Assembly: GCA_964463155.1 (NCBI GenBank)
Contig: CAYXAY010000014.1
Location: forward strand, 1 to 16,987
Source: an uncultured archaeon
GTDB lineage: Archaea > Iainarchaeota > Iainarchaeia > Iainarchaeales > CSSED10-239
Reading direction: 5' to 3'
DNA length: 16,987 nt
Below the pieces are notes generated by a model, which saw nothing but the letters and a program-made list of their open reading frames with translations, ran no database searches and had not been told where the DNA came from. The translations under genes were made by a program, and so were the position numbers. Of this stretch, positions 6,735 through 15,672 are shown in pieces (position 1 is the stretch's first letter; each line of letters opens with the position of its first letter).

Positions 6735-7007
6735 ATGAAGGTAGATCAACATACTAAACTAGGGAAAATAATGAAGCTAAAGGGAATAAACAAAATACTT
6801 GAAAAACATAAAGTCCCTTGCGTTAGCTGTCCAATGGCTAAGTTTGAAATGGATTCGCTTGAGATTGGAACTGTTTGTGACATGTATGGTTTGAACAAAA
6901 AAGAGCTTATATTAGATATCAATCATATTCTAAAGCATAAAAGCAAAGTAGAAAAACCAAAACCCAAAAGAAAAGTCAAAAGGGCAGAATTATTATCATA
7001 CCTATAA
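6735..7007 (+). CDS. DUF1858-like protein (hybrid-cluster-protein-associated redox disulfide domain) with a basic C-terminal tail
   Basis: 90-aa ORF. ILEKHKVPCVSCPMAKFEMDSLEIGTVCDMYGLNKKELILDIN resembles the DUF1858 pattern (f...gm.C.gCp.s..esleeaa..hgid...ll.eLn). GGGGGT SD-like tract about 8 nt upstream. It is the last gene of the Fe-S operon. Confidence 0.65.
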   Translation: MKVDQHTKLGKIMKLKGINKILEKHKVPCVSCPMAKFEMDSLEIGTVCDMYGLNKKELILDINHILKHKSKVEKPKPKRKVKRAELLSYL

Positions 7008-7287
7008 TTGCAGTTAATAGGTTTGCAACAAAAGAAATTATGGTTGCTTTTTTATAATTTATTTCAAATAGCCACTTTATTAAAAATATTTCTGTCAAAA
7101 AAACGCCGATTTCTATTATTATTAAGTAATTAAATTTTGCATAAGCTATTGTTGCAATTGGATGGGTAAAACAATTAATAAGTATTACAAAAAACACCAT
7201 TCTTGTGATTGGTTTTTTTATAAAAAAGAAATAGGTAATTAATTCAAAAATAATTGTAATAAATAACAAAAAAAAATAGCTATACAT
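6976..7287 (-). CDS. Small polytopic membrane protein (about 4 predicted TM helices), function unknown
   Basis: 103-aa, very hydrophobic ORF (YFFLLFITIIFELITYFFFI, MVFFVILINCFTHPIATIAY, YLIIIEIGVFLTEIFLIKWLF, ATIISFVANLLTAIIGMIIILPF). Its ATG (7285-7287) directly abuts the TAA stop (7288-7290) of the upstream gene, implying co-transcription. Confidence 0.6.
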   Translation of the reverse strand: MYSYFFLLFITIIFELITYFFFIKKPITRMVFFVILINCFTHPIATIAYAKFNYLIIIEIGVFLTEIFLIKWLFEINYKKATIISFVANLLTAIIGMIIILPF

Positions 7288-7962
7288 TTATTTCTTTTTT
7301 TTATGTTTTCGGATAATAAATATTGCTAATATAATTAACAATGCAATTAGCGAAATCCCTAGGATCCAATAATATTTTTTGTTCATGTTATTTGAAGGAA
7401 TCGGTCTTGTATTGTTTAGGTAGGGTTTTTCTTCAATGGTTTCATTTGCATATGTGTAAATTACTTTTATTTTTGTGAAAGTTGATTCAGCATCTGAAAA
7501 ATTTGGAAGACTCATAACATCCACTACTTTTGTTAGCGAGTCGCTTTCTTTAACATCTCCTGGTGGTTTAAAATCTATTTCTTTACAAGAGAACTCTTTT
7601 GAATTTTTTATTACTTCTATTGCTGAAATATCAAAATTGATTTGGTCGATATTAGCTTGGTTAAATATAAATTGATTTAATATACTGGAATTTTCTTTTT
7701 TTGTAGAACAAACTTTAAAATTACAAAATTTATACATGCTATAACAACCATCTGGATTTGTCATTTGGTAAATATCATTCATTGCTGTGTCGCAAACTGC
7801 AAAAAAATCGTAATCTGGATATTCTGACAAATTATCAAATTTGATACAATAACTTACTCGTTTATATCCTTCCCTTATGCTGTCGGCAAAATGATTTGGA
7901 ATATATAAGCTAAACAATACAAAAACCACTAACGCAAAAATTATTTTTTTATACATAAACAT
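7288..7962 (-). CDS. Predicted surface protein with an N-terminal signal/anchor, a Cys-containing ectodomain, and a C-terminal TM anchor with a poly-Lys tail
   Basis: 224-aa ORF. N-terminal hydrophobic segment KKIIFALVVFVLFSLYIPNHFADS. Six Cys and several N-x-S/T sequons (NLS, NSS, NFS, NET, NNT) in the middle. C-terminal YYWILGISLIALLIILAIFIIRKHKKKK. No PGF-CTERM-type sorting motif is visible. Confidence 0.7.
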   Translation of the reverse strand: MFMYKKIIFALVVFVLFSLYIPNHFADSIREGYKRVSYCIKFDNLSEYPDYDFFAVCDTAMNDIYQMTNPDGCYSMYKFCNFKVCSTKKENSSILNQFIFNQANIDQINFDISAIEVIKNSKEFSCKEIDFKPPGDVKESDSLTKVVDVMSLPNFSDAESTFTKIKVIYTYANETIEEKPYLNNTRPIPSNNMNKKYYWILGISLIALLIILAIFIIRKHKKKK

Positions 7963-9436: not shown

Positions 9437-9979
9437 ATGGCTGAAAACTTTGAAATTATTGTTTATGGGAGAGGGGGGCTTGGAGCTAAGACTTGCGCAC
9501 AAGTAATTGCTGAAGCTGCATTACTTTCTAGAAAAGAAATACAGGCTTTTCCTGAGTATGGACCTGAAAGAAGGGGGGTTCCTGTTAGGGCGTTTGTTAG
9601 AGTTTCTGATAAGCCTATAAGGACAAGTTCAACAATCACAAAACCTGATTTTATTATAGTTATTGATTCTGGTCTGTTTTCGGTGATTACAGAATTAAAC
9701 AGCTACACTTGTCCAATAATTGTTAATACTACAAAGGACAAAAAAGAATTTAATATTAAAAGCAAAGAACTTTACGTGATTGATGCGACAAAAATATCAA
9801 TGGATAATCTTAAATCAAATAATCCAAATATGGTTTTGATAGGTGTTCTTCTTAAACTAACAAATATTATTAAGTTTGAAGATGTAAAAAAGGTAATTGA
9901 AGAAGAATTTACAAAGAAAAATAAAAAAGAAATGATTGAACCTAACCTTGTTTGTCTAAAGGCAGGGATGAAAAAGTGA
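9437..9979 (+). CDS. porG: Pyruvate:ferredoxin oxidoreductase gamma subunit
   Basis: 180-aa ORF. IIVYGRGGLGAKTCAQVIAEAA matches the GrGGqG...a..ila motif of the POR/KOR gamma family, and FPEYGPERRGVPVRAFVRVSDKPI matches s.yg.E.RGap. It is the first gene of the por cluster. Confidence 0.88.
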   Translation: MAENFEIIVYGRGGLGAKTCAQVIAEAALLSRKEIQAFPEYGPERRGVPVRAFVRVSDKPIRTSSTITKPDFIIVIDSGLFSVITELNSYTCPIIVNTTKDKKEFNIKSKELYVIDATKISMDNLKSNNPNMVLIGVLLKLTNIIKFEDVKKVIEEEFTKKNKKEMIEPNLVCLKAGMKK

Positions 9980-9985
9980 TAATTT

Positions 9986-10258
9986 ATGGCTGAAAGAAAA
10001 ATTGCAGGAATCTTAGATAAAGGAACCTCTGTTGTTAATAAGACCGGAAGTTGGAGAGATGTCAAGCCAGAATGGGATTCTAAGAAATGTATACAATGTC
10101 TTATTTGTTATACAACTTGTCCAGAGAACTGTATCTTGCTAGTCAAAGACAAGCAAGAGAATCCTAAAAGAGACAAGACAAATCTTGATTACTGTAAAGG
10201 TTGTGGGATTTGTGCTAATGTATGCCCTGTAAAATGTATAAAGATGGTAAAAGAATGA
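9986..10258 (+). CDS. porD: Pyruvate:ferredoxin oxidoreductase delta subunit (2x[4Fe-4S] ferredoxin-like)
   Basis: 90-aa ORF with two CxxCxxCxxxCP motifs (CIQCLICYTTCP and CKGCGICANVCP) and the typical TGSWR lead-in. It lies immediately after porG. Confidence 0.9.
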   Translation: MAERKIAGILDKGTSVVNKTGSWRDVKPEWDSKKCIQCLICYTTCPENCILLVKDKQENPKRDKTNLDYCKGCGICANVCPVKCIKMVKE

Positions 10259-10833
10259 CAGATATATTTGAAGATATAGAAAAGATTGAGACAATAATTA
10301 AAGTCAAGGAAAGCCAAAGGTTTGGAATAGTTGGTGATAGGCTTGAAAGCTCTGCTGAACACACTTTTAGCTGTATTCTTTTGGCACAATATTTTATTAA
10401 AAAAATTCCATATAAGCTTGACGAATTGACAGTAATCAAATTATTGAGCTATCATGATATTCAAAATGTCTTTTTCAAAGACATCAATCTTAACACATCT
10501 GATTGGAAACAGAAAAAGGACTTAGAGAAAGAAGCCTTTAAAAAAACAATAAAAAATCTTCCAAACGCTATTGTTGGAGACTATGAAAAATATTACTTGG
10601 AATTTGAAGAGCTAAAGACTACAGAAAGCAGATTTGCAAAAGCCATTGATGTCTTGGAGCCAATTATTCATGCATATAACAAGAAGGAACATTGGAAAAA
10701 CGGCAAATGGACTGAACTGGATTTAAGAAAACATAAAGAAAAATATTTAATAGAATTTCCAATACTTCTAAAATTTTTAAATGACTTTATTGATTTTGCA
10801 AACAAGAATGATTATTTTATAAGGAAGAGATAA
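10255..10833 (+). CDS. HD-domain metal-dependent phosphohydrolase, YfbR-like (HD_3) 5'-nucleotidase family
   Basis: SSAEHTFSCILLAQYF resembles nvAEHS..vA. LSYHDIQNVFFKDI is an HD..x..GD-like motif, and AKAIDVLEPI resembles the distal metal-ligand Asp motif aDkle. I chose the ATG at 10255-10257, which overlaps the porD stop (ATGA) and gives MTDIFEDIEK. The six-frame ORF opens earlier at 10222. Confidence 0.8.
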   Translation: MTDIFEDIEKIETIIKVKESQRFGIVGDRLESSAEHTFSCILLAQYFIKKIPYKLDELTVIKLLSYHDIQNVFFKDINLNTSDWKQKKDLEKEAFKKTIKNLPNAIVGDYEKYYLEFEELKTTESRFAKAIDVLEPIIHAYNKKEHWKNGKWTELDLRKHKEKYLIEFPILLKFLNDFIDFANKNDYFIRKR

Positions 10834-10834
10834 A

Positions 10835-11998
10835 ATGAATAAAATAGCATTGACTGGTGGCGAAGCAATCGCTTACGCTTTTAAGCAAATAAATATTGGT
10901 GTGTTTTCAATGTATCCTATTACGCCGCAAACACCAATCATTGAGACATTTTCAAGATTTGTAGCTAATGGGGAGGTGGATACTGAAATTATCAGAGCTG
11001 AGTCTGAACATTCTGCGCTTTCGGCAACAATTGGAGCTAGCGCTTCTGGAGCAAGAGCAGTAACTGCGACCGCCTCTCAAGGTCTTCTTTATATGTTTGA
11101 GATGCTTTCTATTGCTTCTGGTTTACGCCTTCCTATTGTTATGCCTGTAGCAAACAGAGCAATATCTGCACCAATTAATATACATTGTGATCATAGTGAC
11201 TCTATGTCTGCACTTGACCAAGGATGGATGCAAATATATTGTGAGAATGCCCAAGAAGCATATGAGATGACTATCTTCTCTCAGAAGCTTGCAGAGAAAT
11301 CTTATCTTCCAATAATGATTTGTATTGATGGTTTTTTTACAAGCCATAATCTTATATCAGTAAATGTCTTTGAAGATAGAAAGGTAAAAGATTTTGTTGG
11401 AGAATATAAGCCAGCTTATAATCTTTTAGATACTGATAAACCAATAACTGTTGGAGCATTAGCATTACCAGACAGTTATTTTGAAATAAGAAAAGAAATG
11501 TTTGATGCTTTTAGAGAAGTCAAGAATAATTATCTATCTATTGCTAAGGATTTTAAGAAAAGCTTTGGAAAAGACATAAATTTTTATGAGGACTATTTTG
11601 CAAGCATTTCTGAAACAGTAATAATTGTTCTAAGCTCAACAGCACAGAACACTAAAAATGTTGTTGATAAACTAAGAGAGCAAAAGATTAATGTCGGGTT
11701 ATTAAGACCAATACTTTATAGGCCTTTCTTATATGAAGAATATATTAAACCATTAAGCAAAGCAAAAAACATTATTGTTCTTGAGAGAAGCGAAGGCGCT
11801 GGTAGTTTTTCTGCTGTATACAAGGATATTGTTCTAACAATATTTAATCATTGTAAGACAAAAGAAAAACCAAATATCTATAATTATGTTTTTGGGTTAG
11901 GTGGCAGGGAAATTACTGAAAAACAAATAGAAGAACTGCTGGTTTCTGTTCATCAAGGAAAAGCAATTAGTAAAAGATATGTTGGGTTAGAAAAATGA
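10835..11998 (+). CDS. porA: Pyruvate:ferredoxin oxidoreductase alpha subunit
   Basis: 387-aa ORF. LTGGEAIAYAFKQINIGVFSMYPITPQTPIIE and AESEHSALSATIGASASGARAVTATASQGLLYMFE match the conserved POR alpha N-terminal domain (G.eA.a.ga......v.a.YPITPst.i.e ... ESEhsA.s...GAs.aGaR..TaTSsqGl.lM.E). AGGAAGAG SD-like tract upstream. Confidence 0.92.
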   Translation: MNKIALTGGEAIAYAFKQINIGVFSMYPITPQTPIIETFSRFVANGEVDTEIIRAESEHSALSATIGASASGARAVTATASQGLLYMFEMLSIASGLRLPIVMPVANRAISAPINIHCDHSDSMSALDQGWMQIYCENAQEAYEMTIFSQKLAEKSYLPIMICIDGFFTSHNLISVNVFEDRKVKDFVGEYKPAYNLLDTDKPITVGALALPDSYFEIRKEMFDAFREVKNNYLSIAKDFKKSFGKDINFYEDYFASISETVIIVLSSTAQNTKNVVDKLREQKINVGLLRPILYRPFLYEEYIKPLSKAKNIIVLERSEGAGSFSAVYKDIVLTIFNHCKTKEKPNIYNYVFGLGGREITEKQIEELLVSVHQGKAISKRYVGLEK

Positions 11999-12801
11999 GT
12001 ATCAAATATAGAATTAAAACAGCAGTTAATAAAATCTTTAAACGAAAGAATAAGATAAATACAATTAAAGAACTAAACGAATATGTTAGAGAGAAAAAAA
12101 TAATCGGCCAAGCAGAAATTAAAAAACTATATTTAGAACTTTTAGAAAATAGGGGATTTTTACAACATTATACAAATTTGAAATTTTTAGCAAGAGAAGC
12201 AGTAATCACTGAAATGTTTGTGAACAGATTAAGAAGACAAACAAGTCGTCCAATCGTGGTTTTAGGGATATCGCGCACAGGGGTGCCATACACCTGGTCT
12301 ATTAAGCCAACAAGGGGTTTGGTTGTTGATAAATTGTATTATCCCTCATCATATATTGAAGAAAAACTTGTGGATGTTCAAAAAAAAGTTCTAGCTAAAT
12401 TAAAAAAATATAGACGAATAAGACCTTTGTTTGTTTTTGTAGATGCCTCGTCTTCACAAAGAATGCCTTCATCTTTTGTTGGAAGTAACTACTATCATTT
12501 TATTAATGAAAAACAATCACTAAACACTCTTTTAAAAGCAAATGGCTATAAGACAAAAGTGATTGGTTATGATTGGAGTATGAAGGACTCAAGTAAATAT
12601 CTTCCAAAAGATATTGCTCTAGAAAAACTAAATGCAATACTTTTTAATCCAAGCAAGCGTTCGCAACCAAGAGAATTTCTAGGAGAGAAAAAAGAATATT
12701 CTTCAGCTCCACATGATGACAAAACTGACTATATCTATAGTGAATTTTTTGAAGAATTGGTAAAGGATTTGTGTGCTAAAGAAAAACGGAGATATTCATG
12801 A
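11995..12801 (+). CDS. Hypothetical protein, paralog 1 of a tandem pair inserted between porA and porB (possible divergent phosphoribosyltransferase-like fold, speculative)
   Basis: 268-aa ORF. Its ATG overlaps the porA stop (ATGA, 11995-11998). Conserved blocks are shared with the next gene: ITEMFVNRLRRQTSRPIVVLGISRTGVPYTWSI, PLFVFVDASSSQRMPSSFVGS, and KTKVIGYDWSMKDSSKYLPKDIALEKLNAILFNPSK. I recognise no known family with confidence. Confidence 0.85.
   Translation: MSIKYRIKTAVNKIFKRKNKINTIKELNEYVREKKIIGQAEIKKLYLELLENRGFLQHYTNLKFLAREAVITEMFVNRLRRQTSRPIVVLGISRTGVPYTWSIKPTRGLVVDKLYYPSSYIEEKLVDVQKKVLAKLKKYRRIRPLFVFVDASSSQRMPSSFVGSNYYHFINEKQSLNTLLKANGYKTKVIGYDWSMKDSSKYLPKDIALEKLNAILFNPSKRSQPREFLGEKKEYSSAPHDDKTDYIYSEFFEELVKDLCAKEKRRYS
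12568..12656 (+). repeat. Copy 1 of an 89-nt perfect direct repeat shared by the tandem paralogs
   Basis: tatgattggagtatgaaggactcaagtaaatatcttccaaaagatattgctctagaaaaactaaatgcaatactttttaatccaagcaa is identical base for base at 12568-12656 and 13302-13390 (offset 734 nt). I checked this by hand. Confidence 0.97.
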
Positions 12802-13535
12802 GAAGAAGCAAAAGGGTTGAAACACCAAATCAAAAAATAAAAAAAATAATGCCTATCTATAGATATTACTTGCGATTAGCTCATCCACTGCCAAAACTGA
12901 AATATTTGGCGAAAGAAGTTCTAATAACTGAATTGTTTGTGAATAGATTAAGAAGACAAACAACGCGCCCAATTGTGGTAATAGGAATAGAAAGAACAGG
13001 AGTGCCATACACTTGGTCTATTACTCCAGATAATAAAAGAGTGTTTTTAGATTCTTTAGTTTATAGTTCAACAAAGATACACACTACTGTATTTGCACAA
13101 AAAACCAACTTGCTTAGAAAGATTGGAGAATATAGAAAAGAGCTGAGAGATCCTTTGTTTGTTTTTGTAGATGCGTCATCATCTGCAAGAATGCCTTCGT
13201 CTTTTGTTGGATCGCCAGAATTAAACGGACCATATAAACTCCGAAAAGATTGCATGGAAACTGTTCTTAATCAAAATAATCTTAAAACAAAAGTGGTTGG
13301 GTATGATTGGAGTATGAAGGACTCAAGTAAATATCTTCCAAAAGATATTGCTCTAGAAAAACTAAATGCAATACTTTTTAATCCAAGCAAAGAGCGAAAA
13401 ATAAAATATAAGTTTGAAGGAGAAAAGATAGAATATTCCTCTGCGATACACGATGATAAATGTTCGTTAATGGACTCTCTTGAATTTAAAGAAACAGTAT
13501 TAGATATTGTTAAATATTATAAAAGAAATTTGTGA
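12798..13535 (+). CDS. Hypothetical protein, paralog 2 of the tandem pair inserted between porA and porB
   Basis: 245-aa ORF. Its ATG overlaps the paralog-1 stop (ATGA, 12798-12801), with a GGAG SD-like tract about 8 nt upstream. It shares the same conserved blocks (ITELFVNRLRRQTTRPIVVIGIERTGVPYTWSI, PLFVFVDASSSARMPSSFVGS, KTKVVGYDWSMKDSSKYLPKDIALEKLNAILFNPSK). The N- and C-termini are divergent. Confidence 0.85.
   Translation: MRRSKRVETPNQKIKKIMPIYRYYLRLAHPLPKLKYLAKEVLITELFVNRLRRQTTRPIVVIGIERTGVPYTWSITPDNKRVFLDSLVYSSTKIHTTVFAQKTNLLRKIGEYRKELRDPLFVFVDASSSARMPSSFVGSPELNGPYKLRKDCMETVLNQNNLKTKVVGYDWSMKDSSKYLPKDIALEKLNAILFNPSKERKIKYKFEGEKIEYSSAIHDDKCSLMDSLEFKETVLDIVKYYKRNL
13302..13390 (+). repeat. 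Copy 2 of the 89-nt perfect direct repeat shared by the tandem paralogs
   Basis: Same 89-nt string as 12568-12656. Flanking sequence drops to scattered identity within a few nucleotides on the 3' side and within about 20 nt on the 5' side. Confidence 0.97.
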
Positions 13536-14467
13536 TAAATATGGACATAAAAGAACTAGCTAAAAAAATTAATGAGAAAAACACAATGGTTAGTGGGCAT
13601 CGAACTTGTGTTGGATGTCCAATTGGAGTAATCTGCAGAACCGTTGCTTCTGCTAGCGATAAACCGGTTGTTGCTGTTAGCGCTACATCTTGTGCAGAAG
13701 TTACAACTACTGTTTATCCTCAGACATCTTGGAATATTCCATGGATACATTCTGCGTTTGCTAATGCGGCTGCAACAATTTCAGGAGTTGAATCCGCATA
13801 TAAGGCACAAAAGAAAAAAGGAAAAATAAAAAAAGACATTAATTTTTTAGTTATTGCTGGGGACGGCGGAAGTTTTGACATAGGTTTACAAAGTTTGTCT
13901 GGTGCTCTTGAAAGAGGACATGATTTCGTATTTTTGTGTTATGATAACGAAGGTTATATGAATACTAATAACCAACGTTCATCAGCAACGCCAAGAGGAG
14001 CAATAACAACAACTACCCCTGCTGGAAAAAATTCTTTTGGAAAAGTTGAGTTTAGTAAAGATCTTGTTAAAATTGCAACCGCTCACAATATCCCTTATGT
14101 TGCTCAAGCAAATACTAGTAACTTAATTGATCTTTATAACAAAGCAAAAAAAGCATTTGAAAAGAAAGGTCCAGCAGTGCTTGTTGTGTTTGCGGCTTGT
14201 CCAACAAACATGAAGGCAGAGTCTTCAAAAACAATTGAAATTAGTAAACTTGCAACAGAAAGTAATTTCTGGCCACTTTATGAAATTGAAGATGGGAAAT
14301 TAACTCTCAATTACAAGCCAAGCAAAAGAATAGCAATAGAAGAATTTCTAAAAGCCCAGAGCAAATTCAAAGAAGTACTAAAACCAAAAAACAATGGTGT
14401 TTTAAAAACAATTCAAGAAGAAGTAGATAGAAGATATAATGAATTATTAAAACTTGAAAAAATATGA
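13532..14467 (+). CDS. porB: Pyruvate:ferredoxin oxidoreductase beta subunit (TPP- and [4Fe-4S]-binding)
   Basis: 311-aa ORF. It has GHRTCVGCP, SATSCAEV and FAACPTNM cluster cysteines. The TPP motif is IAGDGGSFDIGLQSLSGALERGHDFVFLCYDNEGYMNTNNQRSSATPRGAITTTTPAGK. The start is either GTG at 13532, overlapping the upstream stop (GTGA), or ATG at 13541. Confidence 0.92.
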   Translation: MINMDIKELAKKINEKNTMVSGHRTCVGCPIGVICRTVASASDKPVVAVSATSCAEVTTTVYPQTSWNIPWIHSAFANAAATISGVESAYKAQKKKGKIKKDINFLVIAGDGGSFDIGLQSLSGALERGHDFVFLCYDNEGYMNTNNQRSSATPRGAITTTTPAGKNSFGKVEFSKDLVKIATAHNIPYVAQANTSNLIDLYNKAKKAFEKKGPAVLVVFAACPTNMKAESSKTIEISKLATESNFWPLYEIEDGKLTLNYKPSKRIAIEEFLKAQSKFKEVLKPKNNGVLKTIQEEVDRRYNELLKLEKI

Positions 14468-15672
14468 ATAGCAATAAAACAAAACTTAGTGGTCTAAAGA
14501 AGATACTTGTCGGAATGCAGATGCTTTTTGTGGCGTTTGGTGCTGTTGTTCTTGTTCCTTTGCTTGTCGGCATTGATCCTGCAATCGCTCTTTTTACTGC
14601 AGGCTGTGGAACATTAATCTTTCATTTGATTACAAGAGGGAAAGTTCCTGTTTTTTTAGGAAGCTCTTTTGTGTTTATTGCTCCAGTCATTAAGGCAACA
14701 GAACTCTATGGCTTTCCTGGAACTTTTGGAGGACTTATGGCTGTTGGTGTTGTTTATATGACAATGTCTTTTATAGTAAGGAAAAAAGGAATCGCTTTTG
14801 TTCAAAAACTTTTCCCACCAATTGTTGTTGGACCAGTAATTATGATTATTGGTCTTTCCCTTGCTGGTGTTGGAGTAACAATGGCAAGCAAAAACTGGCT
14901 TCTTGCTATCATTGCCTTACTTACTGCGATTTTTGTTGTAATCTTTGGTAAAGGGACAATAAGGCTTTTGCCAGTAATTATTGGAATAATTGTTAGTTAT
15001 ATTGTTGCTGTAATATTGGGACTTGTTGACTTTACAAAACTTATTAATGCTCCGTGGTTTTCTGTTCCTTCATTTAGTATGCCTGTTTTTAATATTCATG
15101 CAATCTTGTTTTTGATACCTGTTGCTGTTGCTCCAATCATTGAACATATTGGAGACATGTATGCAATTTCTAAAGCAACAAACAATAATTTTGTAAAAAA
15201 ACCTGGAATCCACAGGACCCTTCTTGGAGATGGACTTGCAACTTTCTTTTCAGGGTTTGTTGGAGGGACACCAACAACAACTTACTCTGAAGTAACTGGT
15301 GCAATAATCTTAACAAAAATAACTGATCCTGTTATCTTAAGGATTGCTGCAATTACTGCTATTTGCTTTGCGTTCCTTGGAAAGATTACTGGTTTTTTAT
15401 ACACTATACCTGAAGCAATACTCGGGGGAGTTATGATTCTATTGTTTGGAATGATTAGTATTGTTGGAATCAAATCTCTAGTAGAATCAAGAACAAACAT
15501 GAACAACACAAAGAACATGGTGGTTGTTGGGATAATGCTTAGTATTGGTGTTGGCGGAGCCTTAATTGGTCTTGGAAATTTTGTTTTAACTGGAATTGCT
15601 CTTGCAAGCATTGTTGGAATAACATTTAATCTAGTATTGCCTGACAAAGAAAAAGATCTAAGAAATATTTAA
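14464..15672 (+). CDS. uraA: Uracil permease (NCS2/NAT nucleobase:cation symporter family)
   Basis: 402-aa polytopic ORF that aligns by eye along its whole length with E. coli UraA. MQMLFVAFGAVVLVPLLVG matches LQHLFAMFGATVLVPVLF. VPVFLGSSFVFIAPV matches IPAYLGSSFAFISPV. IIEHIGD matches IAEHVGH. TTTYSEVTG matches NTTYGENIG. Its ATG overlaps the porB stop (ATGA, 14464-14467). Confidence 0.93.
   Translation: MNSNKTKLSGLKKILVGMQMLFVAFGAVVLVPLLVGIDPAIALFTAGCGTLIFHLITRGKVPVFLGSSFVFIAPVIKATELYGFPGTFGGLMAVGVVYMTMSFIVRKKGIAFVQKLFPPIVVGPVIMIIGLSLAGVGVTMASKNWLLAIIALLTAIFVVIFGKGTIRLLPVIIGIIVSYIVAVILGLVDFTKLINAPWFSVPSFSMPVFNIHAILFLIPVAVAPIIEHIGDMYAISKATNNNFVKKPGIHRTLLGDGLATFFSGFVGGTPTTTYSEVTGAIILTKITDPVILRIAAITAICFAFLGKITGFLYTIPEAILGGVMILLFGMISIVGIKSLVESRTNMNNTKNMVVVGIMLSIGVGGALIGLGNFVLTGIALASIVGITFNLVLPDKEKDLRNI

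Follow-up and report, generated by a model that had tools for sequence, protein, structure and literature searches.

Accessory genes may be embedded in enzyme-subunit operons, as exemplified by narJ, which lies between narH and narI, and conserved genes may also be separated by free-standing homing-endonuclease genes of the phage seg/mob type. Both precedents are relevant to two adjacent open reading frames (ORFs), named here X1 and X2 (X being their family), that lie between porA and porB, the genes of the alpha and beta subunits of pyruvate:ferredoxin oxidoreductase (POR), in a 16,987-nucleotide stretch of DNA from an uncultured, tiny-celled (DPANN) archaeon (contig CAYXAY010000014.1; the whole stretch is referred to as the window). 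Like the narJ-type genes, X is wedged between subunit genes, is translationally coupled to them and keeps its position across lineages. Unlike them, the X family also occurs between pyrE and pyrF and standing alone. X resembles the free-standing homing-endonuclease genes in occupying the junctions of highly conserved genes, in its patchy presence and variable copy number, and in sharing an operon with inteins. In contrast to those genes, X has neither nuclease motifs nor matches to nuclease families, was not found in the collections of viruses and plasmids that were searched, and appears to have been vertically inherited for a long time.

At the level of the protein fold, the closest described systems are the SIS domains and the type I phosphoribosyltransferases (PRTs; PF00156), the latter including the hypoxanthine-guanine (HGPRT) and orotate (OPRT) enzymes. 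The SIS domain 5uqi is the top match of X in a Foldseek search of the Protein Data Bank (PDB), with an E value of 0.04 and TM scores of 0.29/0.35, and SIS domains (5uqi, MurQ, GmhA) share with X long N-terminal helices ahead of the first strand, as well as loops rich in Ser and Thr where the strands end. In contrast, the match is not significant, X gives no Pfam SIS match, and the SIS sequence motifs are not seen. Type I PRTs, also among the best non-significant Foldseek neighbors of X, resemble it in their three-layer α/β organization of ~200 residues, in a Gly-rich loop that follows the first strand, and in a hydrophobic strand that ends in Asp and leads into a loop of small residues. X differs from them in lacking the acidic pair, the TG.T element and a PF00156 match, and in its strand connections. 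The analysis presented here supports X as an undescribed, DPANN-centered protein family that has no detectable relatives in the libraries searched.

X1 and X2 are real genes under selection. An earlier examination of the window from its letters alone (the sequence-only reading) had described two tandem paralogous ORFs of 268 and 245 amino acids and judged it unlikely that they are non-genes; their coordinates proved exact, and the products are paralogues with 59% identity across 210 amino acids (BLASTP, E = 1e-76). All four motif blocks that it quoted as shared were found verbatim in X1 and X2. In the conserved blocks, the Nei-Gojobori proportion of nonsynonymous differences (pN) is 0.08–0.13 versus 0.4–0.5 for synonymous differences (pS), which shows that purifying selection acts on both copies. 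Homologues are present in other genomes. The GC content of X1/X2, 31%, equals that of the flanks, and neither an antisense ORF longer than 64 amino acids nor an Rfam family was found in the X1/X2 region. The proposed overlaps with neighboring genes are real at two of three junctions, the porA stop overlapping the X1 start, and the X1 stop the X2 start, each in an ATGA tetranucleotide. The GTGA overlap proposed between X2 and porB is probably not genuine: the N-termini of nine PorB homologues, MNxKELA..., place the likely porB start at ATG 13541, 5 nt past the X2 stop. Coupling at this junction would still be tight.

The family is small. A word-indexed search of 5.8 billion proteins returned eight clusters, with only six besides the window's, at 36–44% identity, and an exhaustive profile search of 1.84 billion representative proteins gave 38 matches (27 below 1e-30), one of which, P0038, is a spurious repeat. 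A scan of GTDB genomes found only three loci. The bulk of the family comprises proteins of 230–420 amino acids from archaeal metagenome-assembled genomes, and the pyrE gene adjoining one X copy has its closest entries in Woesearchaeota and Nanoarchaeota. Three divergent members carry a helical insert of ~90 amino acids; two of them are assigned, one to Diapherotrites and one to the micrarchaeon Ca. Norongarragalina. The insert-bearing variant also occurs in two giant proteins, P0035 (3,834 amino acids, ENA) and P0042 (3,643 amino acids, Omnitrophota), each with two to three X-like domains that tend to sit downstream of kinase-like segments (Pkinase, 7.5e-5, in P0035). The modules of P0042 are spaced by recurring RRRSPSG linkers.

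The sequence-only reading could not assign X1 and X2 to a known family, and the library searches lead to the same result. X1, X2 and the divergent members were scanned against Pfam, NCBIfam, PHROGs and PADLOC without a match, and a Pfam scan of 31 members at E ≤ 10 showed no recurring family. Searches of the PDB sequences with single sequences and with the profiles A1 and A2 yielded chance-level matches only: a Fab, a sugar-binding protein, the TIR domain of SNC1 (E = 1.1) and a sucrose isomerase (0.014, for one member only). No description of the X family, or of genes wedged into the por operons of DPANN archaea, was found in literature searches.

The genomic context of X was compiled from gene look-ups, a metagenome scan and local annotation of loci with hidden Markov models (HMMs). 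X is found at the porD–porA junction, the porA–porB junction or both in ~11 independent DPANN lineages, sometimes in tandem, so the recurrence next to por genes for which the sequence-only reading had suggested looking does exist. A single copy separates porA from porB in loci L004, L007, L014, L025/26 and L034, and a tandem pair does so in the window and in L030. A tandem pair precedes porB in L012/13/29, where the upstream copy is cut by the contig end and porA is not seen, and one copy precedes porB on the short contig of L031. Both junctions are occupied in L010 and L015. L024 has X at porD–porA together with a second copy after porA that is cut by the contig end, and the short contig of L032 has X at porD–porA only. 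Away from por genes, X lies between pyrE and pyrF in L001/L027 and L033; in L022 these two genes are adjacent without X, and in L021 they are separated by a dihydroorotase-like gene of 314 amino acids that is not an X member. A single contig of 976,691 bp, which holds L027 and L030, carries three X copies. The homologues in Micrarchaeota and Diapherotrites are monocistronic and have unrelated neighborhoods. A degraded X copy, split into two ORFs and devoid of the C-terminal motifs, was seen at 5803-6725 of L012, with a DDE transposase gene ~1.9 kb upstream and PemK and HEPN/nucleotidyltransferase genes in the region.

The located copies clustered by junction in a first neighbor-joining (NJ) tree, in which the porD–porA copies of L010 and L015 (L010_DA and L015_DA) fell together, as did their porA–porB copies (L010_AB and L015_AB). 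A second, bootstrapped tree recovered the porA–porB pairing of L010 and L015 at 99.5%. Given this grouping by junction and the 99.5% pairing, the copies would be old, vertically kept paralogues, and the por-embedded arrangement itself appears to be old and mostly vertically inherited. In the second tree, the two L030 copies are not sisters (0%), and the second of them groups with the L012 copy (100%). X1 and X2 of the window are sisters with 100% bootstrap support, and their duplication is specific to the window's own lineage. The two genes, otherwise ~60% identical at the nucleotide level, share an exactly identical run of 89 nt (Table 1) with a pS of 0 versus ~0.5 elsewhere. This run is probably a recent gene-conversion tract, and conversion of this kind may make X1 and X2 look like closer sisters than they are. 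The tandem pair would represent a duplication of the lineage's own, in which sequence exchange by gene conversion may still be ongoing.

The AlphaFold (AF2) model of X2 calculated from 31 sequences has a pLDDT of 86.9 and a pTM of 0.86; the model from eight sequences was mediocre (pLDDT 75). A variable, basic, helical N-terminus in X1 and X2 is followed by a compact, Rossmann-like α/β core. In the X2 model, two N-terminal helices precede this core, and the order of elements is helix 31–54, strands 59–64 and 82–87, helix 95–115, strand 120–124, a helix, strands 164–167 and 191–194, a hairpin at 203–212 and a C-terminal helix. About 14 residues are invariant or nearly so: E40, T44, R50, T67, G68, Y71, S91, D125, S127, P133, N195, P196, H218 and D219. 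They are located on the long helix, which carries Glu, Thr and Arg, or right after the predicted strands, whose ends carry TG.PY, YPS, VD.S...(R/K)MP, ILFNP and AHDD. These polar residues at the C-terminal strand ends are preserved across phyla, from Micrarchaeota and Diapherotrites to the window, and in the model they may line a crevice, on the C-terminal side of the sheet, in which a ligand is bound or catalysis takes place. Foldseek searches with two models against the PDB and BFVD found no neighbor at E < 0.001. The best matches were SIS domains, HGPRTs and viral PRTs (E 0.04–0.6, TM 0.3–0.4), and pyridoxal 5'-phosphate (PLP) enzymes and histone deacetylases (HDACs) scored alike; the matches are at noise level and reflect a generic α/β resemblance.

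α/β enzymes bind their ligands at the C-terminal ends of the β-strands, where the invariant polar residues of X are situated, and X is therefore read as a small-molecule-binding enzyme. It would be co-expressed with POR and would most plausibly bind a phosphorylated or nucleotide-type ligand, a reading that we favor tentatively, as a possibility rather than an expectation. We infer the enzymatic nature, the type of ligand and the link to nucleotide catabolism from the position of these residues and from the neighboring genes. Nucleotide-related neighbors recur: an HD_3 phosphohydrolase gene in the window, L014 and L015, the pyrE–X–pyrF arrangement in L001/L027 and L033, and a nucleobase permease gene in the window and L004, these two loci being where the transporters that the sequence-only reading had suggested looking for were seen. 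The best sub-threshold structural neighbors, SIS domains and HGPRTs, are phosphosugar- and PRPP-binding folds (PRPP, phosphoribosyl pyrophosphate), which accords with the enzyme reading. In the window, porG, porD, the HD phosphohydrolase gene, porA, X1, X2, porB and the nucleobase permease gene would form one transcription unit, and X would be made stoichiometrically with POR because both would be translated from the same tightly coupled mRNA. X would act within the nucleotide-scavenging, acetate-forming fermentative module proposed for these archaea. A metabolism based on scavenged nucleotides has been proposed for Pacearchaeota (PMC8204110).

Several observations weigh against an enzyme of this kind. 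No significant sequence or structure match to any enzyme was obtained in the searches described above, so that ligand and chemistry are guesses, and the SIS and PRT matches are at noise level (E ≥ 0.04, TM ≤ 0.4). AHDD has been lost, along with other motifs, from two clades within por operons (P0044/L014 and P0007/L004) that have nevertheless kept their position, which is more in keeping with a structural than with a catalytic role. Because the homologues in Micrarchaeota and Diapherotrites are solitary and surrounded by unrelated genes, the por/nucleotide context is lineage-specific, and it may merely reflect the use of a strong operon for expression. The por operons also host unrelated insertions, namely methyltransferase-like genes, a family of ~200 amino acids and inteins. 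Finally, the four porD–porA copies do not form a clade in the second tree (11%).

We consider doubtful the main rival to the enzyme reading, in which X would serve the four-subunit pyruvate/2-oxoacid:ferredoxin oxidoreductase of particular lineages as an accessory subunit or a factor for its assembly. X would be co-translated with the subunits to which it binds, and X1 and X2 would make up a heterodimeric PorA–PorB adaptor. Retention of the subunit-junction position in ~11 lineages, with start and stop codons that overlap or nearly do so, would be expected of such a factor, and the grouping of located copies by junction in the first tree, the 99.5% pairing of porA–porB copies and the persistence between porA and porB of clades devoid of the putative catalytic motifs point the same way. 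So do the tandem X copies ahead of porB in three lineages, those of L030 being old, distinct paralogues. However, a POR subunit accounts poorly for the copies between pyrE and pyrF at two loci, for the solitary genes of Micrarchaeota and Diapherotrites and for the repeated X domains in the giant proteins of Omnitrophota, and the ~14 strongly conserved polar residues look catalytic. X shows no similarity to POR domains, as hhalign comparisons with PorA, PorB, PorG and PorD, and likewise with the HD protein and the permease, gave probabilities of at most 1.4%. No archaeal four-subunit POR is known to need such a subunit, and no narJ-like factor is known for POR.

Another reading, which is unlikely, makes X a long-established selfish or hitch-hiking gene with no functional link to POR: a junction-inserting element that has become domesticated, after the manner of free-standing homing-endonuclease genes, or a gene that exploits strong operons for its expression. 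Such a gene would explain the occupation of several junction types (porD–porA, porA–porB, pyrE–pyrF), the patchy presence exemplified by the X-free pyrE–pyrF pair of L022 and by the porD–porA copy of only some genomes, and a copy number that varies up to three on one 0.98-Mb contig. The degraded, split copy of L012 near a DDE transposase and toxin-antitoxin genes, and the presence of porB inteins and other wedge genes in the same operons, are in line with it. In contrast, X gives no match to homing-endonuclease, transposase or defense families; for the homing endonucleases (LAGLIDADG, GIY-YIG, HNH, PD-(D/E)xK) neither a Pfam, PHROG or PADLOC match nor a conserved (D/E)xK in the alignment was found. 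No copies were found among IMG/VR viral contigs, PLSDB plasmids and INPHARED phages, the GC content of X equals that of its flanks, and the overlapping junctions leave no space for terminal repeats. The junction grouping of the first tree and the cross-phylum conservation of motifs likewise argue for long vertical inheritance under selection.

The sequence-only reading had likened the layout of X to that of type I PRTs, which would make X a far-diverged and possibly inactive version of that fold, with the Ser-rich loop that follows FVFVD corresponding to the PRPP loop. Its observation that the canonical DD and TG residues are missing was correct: the sequence is FVFVD-ASSSxRMPSS, with one acidic residue and no TG.T. 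All members have hhhhD-(A/S)-S-x3-(R/K)-M-P-(S/A)-S, and the PRPP motif (four hydrophobic and two acidic residues, then x2-(T/S)-G-x-T) is absent from them. HGPRTs do recur among the top 50 PDB Foldseek matches (3kb8, 1yfz, 3hvu, 3h83 and 6d9q among others), with E values of 0.05–0.6 and target-normalized TM scores of 0.3–0.39, three viral PRTs are among the BFVD matches, one of the 31 members touches PF00156 (E = 0.066), and pyrE and pyrF flank X in two genomes. However, these structural matches are all non-significant and score the same as those to SIS domains, PLP enzymes and HDACs, neither X1 nor X2 matches PF00156 at E ≤ 1, and hhalign of the X profile A2 against the OPRT profile A3, a single profile of low diversity, gave a probability of 6%, aligning an unrelated C-terminal stretch and leaving the PRPP loop unaligned. 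The predicted connections differ as well, strands 1 and 2 being joined by a helix of only four residues and a helix of 20 residues standing where the textbook PRT topology has its flexible loop. The PRT-like layout is not supported, and this origin of X is very improbable. That X acts like a phosphosugar binder is a weak possibility, and a nucleotide-related role derived from context, not from PRT homology, is conceivable.

Other look-alikes were rejected. Membership in the SIS domains finds no Pfam match and no Foldseek E value better than 0.04. The SNC1 TIR profile match, with colinear YxSS and P.F..VDaS, is at chance level, and no TIR domain is among the Foldseek top 50. For the uracil-DNA glycosylase superfamily (UDG/MUG), recognized by motif A (GINPG/GQDPY) and motif B (NPSGLS/HPSP), hhalign of A2 against Escherichia coli MUG (query 100% identical to 1MUG) gave a probability of 0.3%. 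VDAS and NPSK recall group II decarboxylase motifs of PLP fold-type I, in which an invariant Schiff-base lysine follows a strand (as in NPHK), but the Lys of NPSK is not conserved, many members having V, G, R, N or M instead, and the PLP-enzyme Foldseek matches have TM ≤ 0.3. The methyltransferase-like and ~200-amino-acid wedge families show no relation to X either (hhalign probability ≤ 0.4%). The remaining probability goes to something other than an enzyme, a POR subunit, a selfish gene or a PRT derivative.

The window is a low-GC (30–35%) archaeal fragment, in which positions 9437-15672 form a single tightly packed run of genes on the plus strand (Table 1). The likely start of the HD_3 gene, situated between porD and porA, is the ATG at 10255 as judged from homologues, which creates an ATGA overlap with the porD stop. 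An HD_3 gene is at the matching position in L014 and L015; that of L014 is split across two ORFs and is probably a pseudogene. In L004/L028, the permease gene lies ~1.3 kb downstream of porB, past an acetate kinase gene on the opposite strand. Other genes of the window include radA, a Mre11-like phosphoesterase gene, iscS/nifU, and genes of the alpha subunit of an ADP-forming acyl-CoA synthetase and of topoisomerase VI A. Two unannotated ORFs occupy the minus strand at 6976-7962, the stretch of lowest GC (25%); one encodes 224 amino acids with N- and C-terminal hydrophobic segments and the other a hydrophobic protein of 103 amino acids.

Table 1 Features of the por operon and of the X1/X2 tandem in the window (TPP, thiamine pyrophosphate).
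Feature	Coordinates	Strand	Description
porG	9437..9979	+	POR gamma subunit, first in operon; PF01558 5e-33
porD	9986..10258	+	POR delta subunit, 2x[4Fe-4S]; Fer4 families ~5e-12
HD_3/YfbR-like phosphohydrolase	10255..10833 (ORF 10222-10833)	+	PF13023 8e-20, PF12917 2e-7
porA	10835..11998	+	POR alpha subunit; POR_N 2e-71, PFOR_II 6e-21
X1	11995..12801	+	268 aa, ATG start; upstream tandem member; family HMM E 5e-86; no Pfam/NCBIfam match
89-nt tract in X1	12568..12656	+	Identical to 13302-13390 of X2 (exact run by script); inside repeat family D1
X2	12798..13535	+	245 aa, ATG start; downstream tandem member; family HMM E 1e-83
Partner tract in X2	13302..13390	+	Identical to 12568-12656
porB	13541..14467	+	POR beta subunit, TPP-binding; PF02775 (TPP_enzyme_C) 4e-20; mechanical ORF from GTG 13532
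Xanthine/uracil-family permease	14464..15672	+	PF00860 2e-80; ATGA overlap with porB

Further genes were observed at the por junctions of other loci. A Methyltransf_23-like family of ~245 amino acids lies between porG and porD (L010 5954-6700; L024 4217-5682; L026 3017-4389; L025 3642-4388; L030 2656-3390), with two members in tandem in L024 and L026, and one further member is outside the por operon (L001 13427-14218). A TehB-like methyltransferase family is present at porA–porB next to X, after it in L010 (10299-11018) and before it in L024 (7933-8670). An unannotated family of ~200 amino acids with no Pfam match adjoins X at porD–porA (L010 7786-8373; L032 347-946); its string GFSPGVLIEGAF is reminiscent of the LOG/SLOG motif PGGxGTxxE, a resemblance that Pfam does not support. 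Antisense between porG and porD of L004 (5627-6454, minus strand) is a gene of 275 amino acids with a weak Bud32-like kinase match (E 0.003). PorB contains an intein with a LAGLIDADG domain in L004 (9165-11213), L007 (5717-7762) and L012 (1117-3156), the gene encoding ~680 amino acids, and NifU contains an intein in L004 (1467-3062). In the window, porB (311 aa) and nifU (150 aa) have no intein.

DPANN-specific hypothetical families are numerous, which tempers the interest of any one of them, and the function of X is a proposal; the interest in X stems from its conserved, unusual operon position and from its orphan fold, a confidently predicted structure with no detectable neighbor in the PDB or BFVD. 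X may be, although we would not presume it, a new enzyme or fold family specific to ultra-small symbiotic prokaryotes that is maintained in as many as three copies in DPANN genomes of ~1 Mb, is reused as a repeated module beside kinase-like domains in the giants of Omnitrophota and, in Woesearchaeota-like archaea, cooperates physically or metabolically with POR, as a partner of a new kind or as a step of nucleotide-scavenging energy metabolism. The family links DPANN proteins to these enigmatic giant proteins. In genomes as minimal as those of DPANN archaea, a gene that is maintained in two or three copies and co-translated with POR, an enzyme central to energy metabolism, is unlikely to be superfluous. 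Should X prove to be a POR partner, the accepted view of the archaeal enzyme as made of four subunits would have to be revised; should it prove to be an enzyme that scavenges nucleotides or cofactors, it could close one of the many gaps in DPANN metabolism.

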